A stretch of 64,000 nt of DNA. Origin: a virus. The position numbers and the translations under genes are program-made. Where the stretch lies: the IMG/VR virus record IMGVR_UViG_3300023174_006137, positions 95,492-159,491 of that record, one strand, 5' to 3'. Positions 8,314 to 43,315 of this stretch are shown in pieces; within the stretch, counting starts at the first letter, position 1; each line of letters starts with the position of its first letter. Below the pieces are notes generated by a model. It was not told the origin of the DNA, searched no databases, and was given only the letters and a program-made list of their open reading frames with translations.

Positions 8314-9072
8314 ATGAAGTACATAACAATATCTATAAAAGAATTTTACAAGCTAAATGAATCTCTTATAAATATACAGAATGATATTGATAAAATTTAT
8401 GATAATTATTTCCGAGATGGTATTGAATATATTCAAAATTCAGACAAAATAGATTTATCTAAATTTAAAGTTGGCGAAATTAGTTCAGCGGATTTAACCG
8501 ACGAATTATGTAAAAAAGCACATAAAATAAATCCAATAACAATTTACATAAACAACGATAAAAATTTATATAATAATCATTACAATCCACTTAAAAAATT
8601 AATAAATTTAAGACCAAATAGAAATGCTATAGATTATAGTTTAGGTTTTAATACTATTTCTGAAGCTACTGAATCATTAGATTATGAACAGAAAGAAACT
8701 TTTATAAGGGAATTTAAAGAATCAACAATAAAAGGATCTATACATCACGAATTAGTTCATTGGATTGATGATAGTTTAAATAATAAGCATATAGAAAAAA
8801 TAATAAAAAAACAGTTAGATAACAAAAAATATATTAAAGATGCAAATTATAGAAACTTTGAAATACAATCACAAATTCACAATATAATTCAATTAAAAAA
8901 ACAAAATCAAGATATTTGGAATTATTTAAGTTTTGCAGAAATGATAAAATTATCACCTTCTTTAAGTACCGTTTTTAAAAATATGACTAATATTGATGGT
9001 AGAAATAAATGGCTTCGACAACTGAAAAGTAGATTATATAGAGAAGGATTACTAGGTAAAAATATGATATAA
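8314..9072 (+). CDS. Putative zincin (HExxH) metallopeptidase-like late protein
   Basis: HHELVH plus downstream FEIQS glutamate. Confidence 0.5.
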   Translation: MKYITISIKEFYKLNESLINIQNDIDKIYDNYFRDGIEYIQNSDKIDLSKFKVGEISSADLTDELCKKAHKINPITIYINNDKNLYNNHYNPLKKLINLRPNRNAIDYSLGFNTISEATESLDYEQKETFIREFKESTIKGSIHHELVHWIDDSLNNKHIEKIIKKQLDNKKYIKDANYRNFEIQSQIHNIIQLKKQNQDIWNYLSFAEMIKLSPSLSTVFKNMTNIDGRNKWLRQLKSRLYREGLLGKNMI

Positions 9073-9887: not shown

Positions 9888-11471
9888 TTAATTTTTATAA
9901 CTATCTTTTAAAGAAACTGTTTTTATAAAACTTCCATCTAAATCTTTGGTATAATAACCATTTCTTACAAATTGTGCAGCTTTACCAACTTCACAATTAT
10001 CAATATTTAATTCACTATAAATTATAGTTTCATGTATTACATCATTCTTTATTTCACAATTATTATCTAAAAATAAATCTTCATACTCCTTAACCATAAT
10101 TTCTTTATTATATAACGCAGAAACCCAGTGAATTGTTCCTTTTACTTTTCTATCTGACTTGCCAGATTTTGTATCTACATCAATAGTACATCTTATTTCA
10201 ATTATATTACCAATGCTATCTTTGATGATTTCATTTGCTTTTATAATATAAGCACCTTTTAATCTAACTTCGCCACCTAATTTTAAACGATAATATTTCT
10301 TATCGGCTTCTTCTCTAAAATCTTCATTTTCAATATAGATTTCTTTTGTAAAAATAACTTCTCTTTTACCATCATTTGGATTTTCAGGATTATTTTCAAT
10401 TTCACAAATTTCAGAACCTTCATAATTCGTTAAAACAACCTTAATAGGATTGAAAATGCACATATATCGATATGCTATTTTATTTAAATGATTCCTTAAA
10501 CATTCTTCTAATAATTTATAATCAATTACAGATTCTCTTTTAGTATAACCAATGATTTCACAGAAATTTTTAATAGATTCTGGAGTATAGCCTCTTCTTT
10601 TTAACCCAGATAATGTTAATAATCTTGGATCGTTTAATGTATACCCTTCTTCAATCAAAGACTTAAACTTCCTTTTACTCATTAAATGATTAACAACATT
10701 CAATCTAGCAAATTCGGTTTCTTCTGGTAAATTATTTTCTAAATCTAAATTATTTAATATCCAATTATAAAGAGGACGATGTAATTCAAATTCCAAAGTG
10801 CATAAAGAATCTGTTATTCCTTCTATGTAATCTGAAATAGGATGAGCAAAATCATACATAGGATAAATACACCATTTATTACCAGTATTATGATGTTCTT
10901 CTTTAATTATTCTATATATGATAGGATCTCTCATGCACATTATCGGACTTGACATATCAATTTTCAATCTCAAAGTGCAATGACTTTCTCCATAGATACC
11001 ATTTTTCATATTTTCAAATCTATATAAATTATCCTCAATACTTCTATTTCTATAGATAGAATCTATACCTGGTTTCACTAAATCTCCTTTATTATTGGCT
11101 ATTTCTTCGGAAGTTGAATCATCAACATAAGCTAACCCTTTATTTATTAATTTAACAGTACAATTATAAATATAATCAAAATAATTGGATGTATATTCTA
11201 TTTTGGAAGGGTTAAAGCCTAACCATTTAATATCTGCTAAAATTGCATCAATATATTCGGATTTTTCTGCACAAGGATTTGTGTCATCAAATCTTAAATT
11301 ACATGAGCCATTATATTTTTCCGCTAAACCAAAATTTAAACACATCGATTTTGCATGACCGAGATGTAAAATAAAATTGGGTTCCGGTGGAAAACGCAAT
11401 ACTGGATTGATTCCATTATTTACTTTTTCTAATATTTTTTCTTCTATAAAATTCATAATTTTTAATACCAT
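9888..11471 (-). CDS. glnS: Glutaminyl-tRNA synthetase
   Basis: RFPPEPN, HLGH, LRFDDTNP, YPMYDFAHP, SLCTLEF, MSKRK, KVKGTIHWVS; lies directly downstream of three tRNA-Gln. Confidence 0.95.
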   Translation of the reverse strand: MVLKIMNFIEEKILEKVNNGINPVLRFPPEPNFILHLGHAKSMCLNFGLAEKYNGSCNLRFDDTNPCAEKSEYIDAILADIKWLGFNPSKIEYTSNYFDYIYNCTVKLINKGLAYVDDSTSEEIANNKGDLVKPGIDSIYRNRSIEDNLYRFENMKNGIYGESHCTLRLKIDMSSPIMCMRDPIIYRIIKEEHHNTGNKWCIYPMYDFAHPISDYIEGITDSLCTLEFELHRPLYNWILNNLDLENNLPEETEFARLNVVNHLMSKRKFKSLIEEGYTLNDPRLLTLSGLKRRGYTPESIKNFCEIIGYTKRESVIDYKLLEECLRNHLNKIAYRYMCIFNPIKVVLTNYEGSEICEIENNPENPNDGKREVIFTKEIYIENEDFREEADKKYYRLKLGGEVRLKGAYIIKANEIIKDSIGNIIEIRCTIDVDTKSGKSDRKVKGTIHWVSALYNKEIMVKEYEDLFLDNNCEIKNDVIHETIIYSELNIDNCEVGKAAQFVRNGYYTKDLDGSFIKTVSLKDSYKN

Positions 11472-11475
11472 TTTG

Positions 11476-11546
11476 TAATCCCATACTGGAACGATCAGTA
11501 TTCTTCAGGGTCAAAACCTGACGCATCACCTTAATGCTTTGGGATT
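11476..11546 (-). tRNA. tRNA-Gln(UUG)
   Basis: Cloverleaf; TCAGG-TT TTG AC-CCTGA; variant T-loop ATCGTTC. Confidence 0.75.
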
Positions 11547-11553
11547 ATATTTG

Positions 11554-11625
11554 TAGTCGGACTAGGAGTCAAACCCAGTCTACGAAGGCCAAATCTTCGT
11601 GTGCGCATCGGTACACTATCCAACT
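11554..11625 (-). tRNA. tRNA-Gln(UUG)
   Basis: CGAAG-AT TTG GC-CTTCG; T-arm CTGGG TTTGACT CCTAG. Confidence 0.75.
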
Positions 11626-11631
11626 ATGTAG

Positions 11632-11714
11632 TTGCCAAGACAGGACTCGAACCTGTATTTACTTCTCGTCCTCCGCTTTCAAAGAGCGGGATGCTACCAT
11701 TACACCACTTGGCA
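11632..11714 (-). tRNA. tRNA-Gln(UUG), long variable region
   Basis: CCGCT-CT TTG AA-AGCGG; canonical GGTTCGAGTCC. Confidence 0.85.
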
Positions 11715-11716
11715 AT

Positions 11717-11752
11717 AAAAAAACCGTTCAATCAAATCAGATTGAACGGTTT
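11717..11752 (-). terminator. Attenuator terminator upstream of tRNA-Gln x3/glnS
   Basis: AAACCGTTCAATC-TGATTT-GATTGAACGG-T7. Confidence 0.85.
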
Positions 11753-11773
11753 AGACAATAAAATCTCACACCA

Positions 11774-11821
11774 TCAATCTGGTTTAAATAATTGTTGTTG
11801 TTGAGAAGTTAAAGTTTTCAT
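11774..11821 (-). promoter_or_regulatory. Leader peptide MKTLTSQQQQLFKPD (Gln-sensing attenuator)
   Basis: Four tandem CAA codons; 3' CAGATTGA is complementary to terminator arm TCAATCTG. Confidence 0.85.
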
Positions 11822-31379: not shown

Positions 31380-31485
31380 GAGTCAAAGCAGGAATCGAAC
31401 CTGCGATTGCTTTACCATACAGAGTGCCATTAGCCGTTAATCTCAACCTTTGGAGGTGCTTATGTTGCCACTACACTATTTGACT
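31380..31485 (-). ncRNA. Aberrant tRNA-like RNA (expanded centre, no clear anticodon stem)
   Basis: 7-bp acceptor AGTCAAA/TTTGACT, D-arm GTGT/ACAT, T-arm GCAGG TTCGATT CCTGC. Confidence 0.55.
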
Positions 31486-40285: not shown

Positions 40286-40630
40286 TTAAAGTCTTTCAGA
40301 TTTTTTATAGGCTAATTCATAACTGGAATTAATCTTTTTATAAAGATTTTCTGCTGTAAATTCCTTTAAATAATCTCCTTTATTCTCAATTATATATTTT
40401 TCTGTATACCCACAATTAAATTGCTCGGCTTTAAAATGACAACCATCATAACAATCACATAGTGTTATGCCATTTTCCTTACAATATCCACCATTTGGCA
40501 TTAACTTTCTATTTGTAATATGATGTGCATCTAGCTTTGCATCCGTTCTGCCACACATAACACATTTAAAATTATCTCTTTCAAATACATCTTTACGAAA
40601 TTTTTCTCTAATTTGTTGTTTTATCTTCAT
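40286..40630 (-). CDS. HNH endonuclease
   Basis: VFERDNFKCVMCG, LDAHHI, NGITLC...CH. Confidence 0.82.
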   Translation of the reverse strand: MKIKQQIREKFRKDVFERDNFKCVMCGRTDAKLDAHHITNRKLMPNGGYCKENGITLCDCYDGCHFKAEQFNCGYTEKYIIENKGDYLKEFTAENLYKKINSSYELAYKKSERL

Positions 40631-40632
40631 AG

Positions 40633-40719
40633 AGGAAAACAGGATAGTCGAAATCCGCCCAACTTAATGGGTTCTCGTTTTCCAAACGAGCGGGGACACC
40701 TTTCCCACCTATACTTTCC
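40633..40719 (-). tRNA. tRNA-Ser(GGA) with non-canonical 8/4 fold
   Basis: Acceptor GGAAAGTA/TGTTTTCC (8 bp), T-stem GGAT/ATCC (4 bp), CTCGT-TT GGA AA-ACGAG, long V-arm. Confidence 0.7.
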
Positions 40720-40724
40720 ATTAG

Positions 40725-40811
40725 TGACTCCAGAAGGATTCGAACCCTCATAAAACATATACTGTCTCCCCGTTCGTAGCGGGGCGTTTTAATCCATTAA
40801 ACTATGGAGCC
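40725..40811 (-). tRNA. tRNA-Arg(ACG), long variable region
   Basis: CCCCG-CT ACG AA-CGGGG. Confidence 0.82.
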
Positions 40812-40818
40812 ATTTTAG

Positions 40819-41053
40819 TATTCAGAACGGGATTCGAACCCGCAAAGATTTCATAAATTATAACTTGGAAACCTGCTTCCTGAGTGTTTCCCAGTGCAAT
40901 CTGTTAACCTTGTGTTATAAACCCTCCACCCATTGGTCTTACAGCGGTTATTCACAACCATTCTTTGAATGCCTTTGGTAGTTAGTTAAAATCCCTCATT
41001 TTATGAGTATCCTTAGTGTTTTGGGACTGTTTTTCCTATTAAACTATCTGAAT
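40819..41053 (-). ncRNA. 235-nt tRNA-framed structured RNA
   Basis: Perfect acceptor ATTCAGA/TCTGAAT-A, D-arm GTTT/AAAC, T-arm GCGGG TTCGAAT CCCGT enclosing ~180 nt of multi-stem sequence. Confidence 0.65.
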
Positions 41054-41058
41054 ATTAG

Positions 41059-41143
41059 CGGTAGATACAGGATTCGAACCTGTGGAGCCCGAAGGCTCGG
41101 CAGTTTAGCAAACTGCTGGTATAGACCACTCACCCAATCTACC
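41059..41143 (-). tRNA. tRNA-Ser(GCU)
   Basis: GCAGT-TT GCT AA-ACTGC; V-arm GAGCC TTCG GGCTC; G73. Confidence 0.92.
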
Positions 41144-41148
41144 AAAAT

Positions 41149-41180
41149 AAAAAAGCCTCAGAAATAAATCCGAGGCTTTT
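41149..41180 (-). terminator. Attenuator terminator of the Ser/Arg operon
   Basis: AAAAGCCTCGGA-TTTATT-TCTGAGGC-T6. Confidence 0.88.
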
Positions 41181-41198
41181 AGTATAGACAATACACTA

Positions 41199-41255
41199 TC
41201 ATCTTCGGATTTCGAAGTTAAAACTACTGCGACTAGAAGAAAATATTGTGTTCAT
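41199..41255 (-). promoter_or_regulatory. Leader peptide MNTIFSSSRSSFNFEIRR (Ser/Arg attenuator)
   Basis: TCT TCT AGT CGC AGT AGT; AAATCCGA is complementary to terminator TCGGATTT. Confidence 0.88.
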
Positions 41256-41299
41256 ATACTATATATTAGTTTTTTATTTTTTGTTTTTATTTATTTTTA

Positions 41300-41329
41300 C
41301 AAAAGTAATATTTTTTTTGATTTTGCAAA
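41300..41329 (-). promoter_or_regulatory. Bacteroidota sigma70-type promoter of tRNA operon 5
   Basis: TTTG ... TACTTTTG. Confidence 0.7.
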
Positions 41330-41330
41330 A

Positions 41331-41861
41331 TTATCCAAACCTACTTAAAATAAAATCATCATCGTCATCATCGTCATCATCATTATCACTTTCGTCGATA
41401 ATATAATTTTCAATTTCCTTTTTTAATATATTACATTTTTCATAATTCTCGTTATATAATGCTTTAGCATATTCAGAATACAAAATTAAAAGATCGTCAT
41501 CATATTTACACAATTTGGAAATCTCATCATATAATTCATAATCCTTCATTTGTTCTGTATTATCATGTTCCAATTCATAATTATAAGTCATATTTTCTAT
41601 TTCTTCGTCAGTTTTATTTTCAAAATCTTTATCACGAAACCCTAATGCATATGCAAATTCTTTTATAGTTGGTATATTCTCAATATTTTCTTTTTTTAAT
41701 CTTTCCAAATATCCATCATACATTTGTTTCAAAGTAAATAAATCACCAGTTTTAAGATTTGATTGTTCTAGTTCATATCTTTTAAGAGATAAGTCAACTA
41801 TTTTTTGATTAAAAATAGACTCTTTTAATAAAAATAATTTATAATTGTTAATATATTTCAT
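41331..41861 (-). CDS. Acidic late protein with UVR-like motif and poly-Asp tail
   Basis: MKYINNYKLFLLKE; ALYNENYEKC..LK.EI; poly-D run. Confidence 0.55.
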   Translation of the reverse strand: MKYINNYKLFLLKESIFNQKIVDLSLKRYELEQSNLKTGDLFTLKQMYDGYLERLKKENIENIPTIKEFAYALGFRDKDFENKTDEEIENMTYNYELEHDNTEQMKDYELYDEISKLCKYDDDLLILYSEYAKALYNENYEKCNILKKEIENYIIDESDNDDDDDDDDDFILSRFG

Positions 41862-42109: not shown

Positions 42110-42196
42110 TAATTTTGTTAAGCACTCACTACTAATTGGTGCTTAACTAACCTGTTTCTGTTTTCGTTTTATTTGTTTCATACAATAATTTTTTTG

Positions 42197-42291: not shown

Positions 42292-42375
42292 CGGAAGTTG
42301 ACGGACTCGAACCCTCACAGCTTTTACACCTTCACCGTTTTCAAAACGGCTAACTACTCCTAATTAGGAACTTCC
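42292..42375 (-). tRNA. tRNA-Ser(UGA), atypical D-arm
   Basis: GCCGT-TT TGA AA-ACGGT; long V-arm; G73. Confidence 0.72.
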
Positions 42376-42380
42376 AATTG

Positions 42381-42457
42381 CACGGGTTGTAGGATTTTCA
42401 CCATTTAAACATTAACTTCCTTGCCGGAAGGTGTCTTAAATTTTAGACGAAACCCGT
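42381..42457 (-). pseudogene. Degenerate tRNA-like element overlapping the HNH stop codon
   Basis: Acceptor ACGGGTT/AACCCGT and D-stem GTCT/AGAC present, but 5-nt anticodon loop and broken T-arm. Confidence 0.5.
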
Positions 42458-43315
42458 ATTTTTATATTGTTTTAACCATTTTCTTATTACAGCCTCACTT
42501 ACTCCAAATAATTTACCTGTTCCTGTATTTCCGTTTTCTTTAACAAGTTTCATTAATTCTTCATAAGAAGGTCTATTTTTCACTTTTCTTTGTTTTATAG
42601 AACTACATATTTTGCATAATTTGCTATCTTTTGATATAATTTTACCACAAAAACATTTTTTATGTGTTTTTTCATTTTTATATTCATCTAATTCTTTATC
42701 ATACAATCTTTTAGTTTTATTGCTCCCACAATTAGTTTCCAAGGTAGAATTGCAATTAGGACAAACTATTCTTAAATTTTCAAGACGATTATCATAAGCA
42801 TCACCATTTATATGATCAAGTATATGAACTATTTTAGAATCATTAAACCAATTTTCATCTTGTCCGCATATTTCACAAATTTTATTTTTTATACCTTCTT
42901 TATATAATTTATTTTTTATTACTTTTCTCGAAACAAAAGAATCTTTATTCAGTATATCATCCAAATTTAAAGAATTTTTTGGCTTATTGCCTAACTTAAA
43001 ACCAGATTCAAAATGCTCAATATCTATATTATATAATTTTATATATTTTTTAATTGTTTGAAAATTACCAGAACATCGTGGTGATAAACCTAATTTTATT
43101 ATACATTCTGTATAACTTTTACACTCTTCAACTAATTTTTCAAATTCTTCTTTATTTTCATAAATATATGTTCTTTTTAATTTCAATTTTTTTGCCATTT
43201 CTTGACATGCTCTTTTTGTTCTACCAATCATATTGGCACAATAATCAGCACCCATTTTTGGAAAAAAATCACATAATAACTCTTTTTCTTTTTCTAACCA
43301 TTCATTCGAACTCAT
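42443..43315 (-). CDS. HNH homing endonuclease
   Basis: CEICG..W, LDHINGD..DNRLENLRIVCPNC, C-terminal HTH (GVSE..IRKW). Confidence 0.88.
   Translation of the reverse strand: MSSNEWLEKEKELLCDFFPKMGADYCANMIGRTKRACQEMAKKLKLKRTYIYENKEEFEKLVEECKSYTECIIKLGLSPRCSGNFQTIKKYIKLYNIDIEHFESGFKLGNKPKNSLNLDDILNKDSFVSRKVIKNKLYKEGIKNKICEICGQDENWFNDSKIVHILDHINGDAYDNRLENLRIVCPNCNSTLETNCGSNKTKRLYDKELDEYKNEKTHKKCFCGKIISKDSKLCKICSSIKQRKVKNRPSYEELMKLVKENGNTGTGKLFGVSEAVIRKWLKQYKNTGFV

Follow-up and report, generated by a model that had tools for sequence, protein, structure and literature searches.

A putative leader-peptide attenuator upstream of serine and arginine tRNA genes in a giant lake phage

The serine and arginine tRNA genes at nt 40633–41329 of the window (the whole stretch of viral DNA analysed here, 64,000 nt) are probably controlled by a ribosome-mediated (leader-peptide) attenuator, which would place tRNA supply under negative feedback via decoding speed; no experimental data are available for this. 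An attenuator had been proposed for the region by an earlier reading made from the sequence alone (the sequence-only reading), and the proposal was borne out: its features are present and correctly placed, the codons of the leader follow the tRNAs of the operon, and the antiterminator helix carries compensatory changes.

Anatomy of the Ser/Arg unit

The source contig is the 159,491-bp virus record of a giant lake phage, and every tRNA gene on it falls inside the window, which has a G+C content of 26%. ARAGORN detects 39 tRNA genes in the window, all on the minus strand, and Rfam finds four tRNA genes beyond these 39. The parts of the Ser/Arg unit, their order and their spacing can be read directly from the DNA and from that of related phages. 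In minus-strand order (all coordinates of the unit refer to this strand), they are a promoter, a leader ORF, a spacer, a terminator, tRNA-Ser(GCU), a 236-nt tRNA-like RNA, tRNA-Arg(ACG) and tRNA-Ser(GGA).

A regular-expression scan for the Bacteroidota-type promoter motif (TTTG, 17–20 nt, TAnnTTTG) gave a match at 41300–41329, 44 nt 5′ of the leader ATG and between the upstream gene and the leader. The same expression has 16 minus-strand and two plus-strand matches, against 1.6 expected per strand, and matches precede five leaders (that of the Ser/Arg unit and four others) as well as the initiator tRNA gene. The leader ORF (41199–41255) has 18 codons and a TGA stop, with the ATG at 41255 and the TGA at 41199. 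Its codons 6–11 (41223–41240) form the regulatory run Ser Ser Ser Arg Ser Ser, encoded as TCT TCT AGT CGC AGT AGT, and its final codons contain the 5′ strand of the antiterminator (41205–41212). An 18-nt spacer (41181–41198) follows, and in minimum-energy folds of the nascent transcript it folds into a hairpin of 7 bp, with the antiterminator helix closing around it. The 3′ strand of that helix (41166–41173) takes in the upper end of the terminator 5′ arm and three nucleotides of the loop. The intrinsic terminator itself (41144–41180), located by a terminator scan and folding, has a 12-bp stem (41180–41151), a 6-nt loop and a U tract (41150–41144). The U tract touches the start of tRNA-Ser(GCU) at 41143, with no gap and no promoter between them, so the tRNAs can only be made by readthrough of the terminator.

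The first gene of the operon, tRNA-Ser(GCU) (41058–41143; ARAGORN, and Rfam at 55.4 bits), reads AGT and AGC. It is followed by the 236-nt tRNA-like RNA (40818–41053), in which acceptor, D and T arms surround a large insert and whose identity is unknown. Next come tRNA-Arg(ACG) (40724–40811; ARAGORN, and Rfam at 56.7 bits), which has a long extra arm and would read CGT, CGC and CGA if A34 is deaminated to inosine, and tRNA-Ser(GGA) (40632–40719; ARAGORN), which reads TCT and TCC and has a non-canonical T arm. These three tRNAs had been named as the gated genes in the sequence-only reading. All three are called by ARAGORN, only Ser(GCU) and Arg(ACG) by Rfam, and the list was incomplete in that the tRNA-like RNA, which also lies inside the operon, went unmentioned. 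Directly 3′ of the last tRNA gene is a 114-aa Cys/His-rich ORF (40286–40630), HNH-like by eye but without a Pfam hit; a Cys/His-rich ORF, again judged by eye, also trails the orthologous operon in the phage genome LR745206.1. Endonuclease-type ORFs lie in or at the end of tRNA operons of the window at 40286–40630 and at 42443–43315 (minus strand), and a 290-aa ORF of this type shows weak Pfam HNH matches.

Leader codons and tRNA genes in the window and in related phages

By standard wobble rules, TCT is read by anticodon GGA and AGT by GCU (G34:U), while CGC is read by ACG when A34 is inosine and pairs with C. All six codons of the run (41240–41223) can be read by the three tRNAs of the operon in this way. 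The sequence-only reading had described the codons as an exact match to the three anticodons; the correspondence between codons and tRNAs stands, but the pairing is wobble and not exact. Runs of at least six codons drawn from the set read by these tRNAs occur once in the six frames of the 159,491-bp contig, at the leader itself, where 0.003–0.008 are expected, and this uniqueness is a direct observation. The seven codons concerned make up 4.6% of the codons in long ORFs of the contig, CGC only 0.06%. The position of so rare a run, exactly at the leader, argues against a constitutively leaky terminator that merely keeps tRNA levels low or terminates transcripts arriving from upstream, with the small ORF unrelated or untranslated, and so does the dedicated promoter ahead of the leader. 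Such a leaky terminator is considered improbable.

Seven other leaders in the window share the layout of the Ser/Arg unit. When leaders are matched to operons, the true assignment in the window gives the highest cognate-codon total among 40,320 permutations, and across four genomes the true pairing is the single best permutation in each (1/5040, 1/5040, 1/5040 and 1/40320). A gate that depends on translation but reports general translation capacity or infection phase, and not specific tRNAs, would be opened together with all other gates by any shortage or slow-down of ribosomes. It has in its favour that a similar N-terminal start is common to all leaders. It needs no codon specificity, however, yet the true pairing beats every permutation in the four genomes, and the leader codons follow the gain, loss and regrouping of Ser(UGA), Leu and Cys tRNAs. 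A general-capacity gate is accordingly held to be unlikely.

Orthologs of the Ser/Arg unit were found in four other phage sequences. The first is an 89.7-kb IMG/VR fragment (G003) that carries a homolog, 69% identical, of the 1310-aa protein of the window, and whose att5 region is 76–86% identical in DNA sequence. The second is a 385-kb IMG/VR phage (G001) with a glutaminyl-tRNA synthetase (GlnRS) 57% identical to that of the window. The third and fourth are LR745206.1 (635 kb) and LR756502.1 (642 kb), from a huge-phage set whose largest members are predicted to infect Bacteroidetes (PMC7162821). An intact leader ORF of 19–24 codons is present at the same place in 4/4 orthologs, and all four retain the Ser/Arg run, the antiterminator pairing and a terminator placed immediately, or almost immediately, before the first tRNA gene. 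No DNA-level ortholog was found in LR756504.1 or LR756500.1, and a GlnRS-linked contig (G002) is a fragment from which the Ser/Arg operon is absent. The neighbouring 176-aa protein has no relatives among viral contigs, and no conserved proteins flank the Ser/Arg unit in G001.

The AGT CGC core of the run is invariant between the window, G001, LR745206.1 and LR756502.1, and is also present in G003. Around it, the orthologs exchange TCN, AGY and CGN codons, keeping serine and arginine but not the nucleotides. To judge from these sequences, the switches of serine codons between the TCN and AGY boxes point to selection on decoding and not on RNA sequence. They also weigh against direct, T-box-like sensing of tRNA without translation, in which codon-like triplets would pair with anticodons and stabilise the antiterminator, as the amino acid stays unchanged while the triplets move between boxes. 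The match of the codons to the anticodons of the downstream tRNAs, and the presence of an antiterminator/terminator pair, would suit such a mechanism. However, in all 29 cases the triplets share a single open frame bounded by an ATG and a stop, and the spacing suits a ribosome footprint. Furthermore, Rfam searches gave no match to a riboswitch, T-box included, either for the whole window at the gathering threshold or for 40600–41350 with E values of up to 1 allowed. Sensing of this kind is therefore regarded as very improbable.

Leader codons and operon tRNA content, the latter checked by ARAGORN at a relaxed threshold, are observed to vary together. The operon of the window comprises Ser(GCU), the tRNA-like RNA, Arg(ACG) and Ser(GGA), and that of G003 has the same genes plus Ser(UGA). 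G001 has Arg(ACG), Ser(UGA), Ser(GCU) and Ser(GGA); both LR745206.1 and LR756502.1 have the G001 set plus a second Ser(UGA). LR756502.1 has Arg(UCG) in addition (both of its extra genes are ARAGORN calls), and in LR745206.1 the tRNA after Ser(GGA) looks Arg(UCG)-like by eye but is given no identity by ARAGORN. TCA and TCG codons occur in the four leaders with Ser(UGA) in the operon (G003, G001, LR745206.1 and LR756502.1). The leader of the window, whose operon is without Ser(UGA), contains neither codon and has TCT TCT at that place. Its Ser(UGA) gene is found instead at 42375–42291, in the neighbouring His/Trp/Phe/Lys unit, the leader of which has both TCA and TCG. In LR756504.1 the serine tRNAs are grouped with leucine and cysteine tRNAs, and the leader of that group is rich in Leu, Ser and Cys, which alternate along it.

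Several RNAs of these operons are unusual. The 236-nt tRNA-like RNA belongs to no Rfam family and has no canonical anticodon arm. G003 has a conserved copy with a compensatory change in the acceptor stem, and five other relatives lack it; we take it to resemble the small stable RNAs encoded within the tRNA gene cluster of T4. Its ARAGORN interpretation as an intron-bearing tRNA-Leu(AAG) was rejected, the anticodon stem being mismatched, as was a Tyr(AUA) call at the relaxed threshold, which looks spurious. The tRNA-Ser(GGA) gene (40632–40719) goes undetected by the Rfam tRNA model, even when E values as high as 1 are allowed; its counterpart in G003 is 86% identical and shows a compensatory acceptor change. 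The tRNA-Arg(ACG) of the window is 88 nt long, against 73–75 nt in G001, LR745206.1 and LR756502.1, and other oversized tRNAs of the window that do not belong to class II are those for Gln (84 nt), Pro (86 nt), Met (87 nt), Val (88 nt), Cys (90 nt) and His (91 nt). A 106-nt Rfam tRNA match at 31380–31485 (minus strand) is read by ARAGORN as a tRNA-Trp with a 30-nt insert, and its identity is uncertain. G001 carries a tRNA with anticodon CUA, of the amber-suppressor type (L019:633-705).

Two further units of the window have their own layout. At 9888–11821 (minus strand), a Gln leader with four CAA codons and a terminator gate three tRNA-Gln genes that run into the GlnRS gene (9888–11471), so that a single attenuator may serve both the tRNA-Gln genes and GlnRS; G001 is arranged alike (L002:9719-11635). 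At 42143–42181 (minus strand), a Lys-rich mini-ORF of 12 codons stands ahead of two tRNA-Lys genes, with a hairpin lacking a U tract behind it, and a similar Lys-rich mini-ORF occurs in G001 (L017:9764-9808).

Folding of the leader and the proposed switch

The leader RNA folds well above shuffled sequences (z = -5.6), and the 12-pair terminator stem has an energy of about -17 kcal/mol (-17.3). Nucleotides 41212–41205 are perfectly complementary to 41173–41166, that is, to the last five nucleotides of the terminator 5′ arm and three loop nucleotides, giving a duplex of 8 bp and -10.4 kcal/mol. An antiterminator pairing across the 5′ arm and loop had already been described from the sequence, and this 8-nt complementarity proved to be real and is conserved in the orthologs. 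Taken in the window alone it is borderline, being equalled by 54 of 1000 dinucleotide shuffles (p ~0.05), which is at best marginally above chance and is one of the points that a leaky terminator could claim.

Stronger evidence for the helix comes from comparison. The window, G001, LR745206.1 and LR756502.1 were aligned (alignment A3) over a shorter region than in a whole-leader MAFFT alignment (A2), which was misaligned. The antiterminator helix is paired in 32/32 cells of this alignment, with compensatory changes at 3/8 pairs, while registers slid against it reach at most 56% paired cells and show zero compensatory changes. The observed score was reached by 13 of 500 shuffles. The terminator is paired in 97.9% of cells across the same sequences. 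At alignment column 55, a base of the terminator 5′ arm changes from G to A together with both of its alternative partners, the one in the antiterminator (column 7) and the one in the 3′ arm of the terminator (column 66), and such double covariation is expected of a switch. G003 has a remodelled terminator stem and an unchanged antiterminator pair. Conservation and covariation are thus seen directly, but the covariation counts are small, as only five orthologs were to hand and these are mutually related. The persistence of ORF, Ser/Arg run and antiterminator, with compensatory changes, in relatives of ~57–69% protein identity is a further argument against a leaky terminator beside an unrelated ORF.

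Equilibrium folding with ribosome masks shows no switch: the terminator wins at every modelled position of the ribosome (P ~0.9). This dominance in every modelled equilibrium state is what a constitutively leaky terminator would also show, and under the attenuator interpretation it implies that the switch must be kinetic and occur only in co-transcriptional folding. Of the 12 bases in the 5′ arm, the antiterminator blocks just the top 5, and the terminator state is ~10 kcal/mol more stable. Modelling of the switch consequently rests on footprint-masked folds of nascent transcripts ending at the terminator loop, and not on equilibrium folds. With the A site of the ribosome on codons 6–11, the predicted minimum-energy structure consists of the antiterminator (41212–41205 with 41173–41166) and the spacer hairpin, at -15.2 kcal/mol. 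When the A site is on the last AGT, the modelled footprint ends at 41213, one base short of the antiterminator strand. With the ribosome at the stop codon, 41212–41205 is covered in the model, the antiterminator cannot form, and the terminator 5′ arm is left free. Without a ribosome, the Ser-codon region is predicted to pair with the last part of the ORF, and once more nothing occupies the terminator 5′ arm.

This last state corresponds to the 1:2 protector pairing of an untranslated leader, which is predicted in the window but not in G001, LR745206.1 or LR756502.1. The free leaders of those three phages favour the antiterminator (0.84–0.87), as does untranslated RNA of many other leaders (0.6–0.9 when free, these three included), so that mere absence of leader translation would open the gate; this supports the view that such gates report general translation capacity.

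Sequestration of the terminator 5′ arm was modelled for 29 attenuators from four genomes. It exceeded the shuffle mean in 28 of the 29, and in 17 the count of shuffles was at or below 10/200; for the window's own Ser/Arg attenuator it was not significant (40/200). In most of the 29, predicted sequestration is high as long as the ribosome has not moved beyond the cognate run, and falls after that point.

The leader-peptide attenuator favoured here would operate as follows. Host RNA polymerase would start at the promoter (41329–41300) and a ribosome would translate the 18-codon leader. When the serine (TCT, AGT) and arginine (CGC) codons are decoded fast, the ribosome at the last codons or the stop would cover 41212–41205, the terminator (41180–41151) would fold, and transcription would stop within the U tract, a single base ahead of tRNA-Ser(GCU). 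If charged Ser(GCU), Ser(GGA) or Arg(ACG) tRNA were scarce, decoding would slow and the ribosome would stall on 41240–41223. The footprint of the stalled ribosome is predicted to end just short of 41212, and 41212–41205 could then pair with 41173–41166 as soon as the latter is made. With the top of the terminator stem blocked, polymerase would read through into Ser(GCU), the tRNA-like RNA, Arg(ACG) and Ser(GGA), and the newly made tRNAs would speed decoding and close the gate again. Translation of the ORF, stalling within it, the capacity of the 8-bp helix to delay the terminator long enough, and tRNA supply as the signal are inferences only, and the kinetic interpretation assumes a coupling of transcription and translation that is not established for the unidentified Bacteroidota host.

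Distribution and comparison with known systems

Leader and terminator units of this design are not confined to uncultured viruses. The cultured Cellulophaga phage phi40:1 (KC821612.1, 72.5 kb; host Cellulophaga baltica) has three, at L045:7282-7410, 8742-8910 and 9984-10129, which match the tRNA sets downstream of them and have antiterminator duplexes of -11 to -19 kcal/mol. Two of these leaders are annotated merely as hypothetical proteins (gp066 and gp070), and the ending of the Ser/Asn/Phe leader is much like that of the huge-phage Ser/Arg leaders. Prevotella phage Lak-B1 (MK250020.1, L038:2812-3012) carries an ORF of 37 codons with an abundance of Asn, Tyr, Val, Asp, Ala, Trp and Gln, then a terminator of -16 kcal/mol and, just downstream, a Trp/Asn/Val/Ala/Tyr/Asp/Gln tRNA series. 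This ORF and terminator form a possible candidate for a multivalent attenuator in gut megaphages.

Phage tRNA genes are usually discussed just as a static supplement to the host pool. It is conceivable, though only tentatively suggested, that the units described here form a bank of codon-specific demand sensors, about eight per genome, each switching on one tRNA block when its own codons are decoded slowly. Bacteroidota phages, ranging from the Cellulophaga phage (72 kb) to megaphages of 640 kb and perhaps including the gut Lak phages, could then detect and repair selective loss of host tRNAs, which could stem from codon-usage mismatch, host shut-off or tRNA-cleaving defence nucleases. If the gates work as inferred, the phages would gauge how fast individual codons are decoded and produce each set of tRNAs as it is needed. 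Classic attenuation would be extended to RNA genes in a closed loop, with tRNA as both signal and product, and large phages would have a mechanism for independence from host tRNA pools and from defences that target tRNA. A leader ORF and terminator before tRNA genes would then be a simple annotation signature for regulated tRNA operons, and the presence of the design in cultured phi40:1 makes the idea directly testable at the bench.

The attenuators of amino-acid operons (trpL, hisL, pheL, leuL, thrL and ilvL) likewise consist of a short promoter-proximal ORF with regulatory codons, a terminator, and an antiterminator sharing bases of the terminator 5′ arm. The position of the ribosome decides the fold in those systems, as is proposed for the Ser/Arg unit, and the multivalent thrL and ilvL leaders of enterobacteria sense two amino acids, as the Ser/Arg leader would. 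They control biosynthetic enzymes, whereas the Ser/Arg unit controls three tRNAs and a tRNA-like RNA. The sensed molecule and the product of the Ser/Arg unit are thereby of the same class (tRNA), and the feedback loop closes directly. The unit also differs from them in being phage-borne, with Bacteroidota as the predicted host phylum, and a conserved 1:2 protector pairing is not evident. To our knowledge, the genes controlled by all described leader-peptide attenuators are those for amino-acid biosynthesis or for synthetases. No Rfam leader family matches above threshold in the Ser/Arg unit; weak matches to Phe_leader (22.6 bits against a cut-off of 55) and to STnc230 were rejected as mostly generic-terminator signal.

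The pheM leader of E. coli pheST provides a case in which a component of the translation machinery is under attenuation and responds to charged cognate tRNA, pheST encoding a synthetase. The Gln unit of the window (leader, three tRNA-Gln genes and GlnRS) is closer to pheM/pheST than is the Ser/Arg unit. T-box riboswitches of Gram-positive bacteria also choose between terminator and antiterminator according to the state of a tRNA, with codon-anticodon recognition, but the T-box binds uncharged tRNA directly and without a ribosome, whereas the triplets of the Ser/Arg unit are codons in a frame inferred to be translated.

A full-text literature search found no paper on leader-peptide control of tRNA genes, and the terms 'attenuat', 'leader' and 'terminator' are never used in the huge-phage genome paper (PMC7162821). 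The nearest published case is the trn operon of Anabaena PCC 7120, a supernumerary tRNA array that is usually silent, is induced by impaired translation elongation, and is controlled by the repressor TrcR at the -10 box (PMC8421152, PMC10272220). The text of the Anabaena trn-operon paper contains none of the terms 'leader peptide', 'attenuat' or 'terminator'. The Anabaena operon has one global switch, whereas each tRNA block of the phage would have its own codon-specific gate. With leader translation, stalling and regulated readthrough as inferred steps, the Ser/Arg unit represents a known kind of mechanism applied to a new class of genes, those for tRNAs, and with a new feedback logic.
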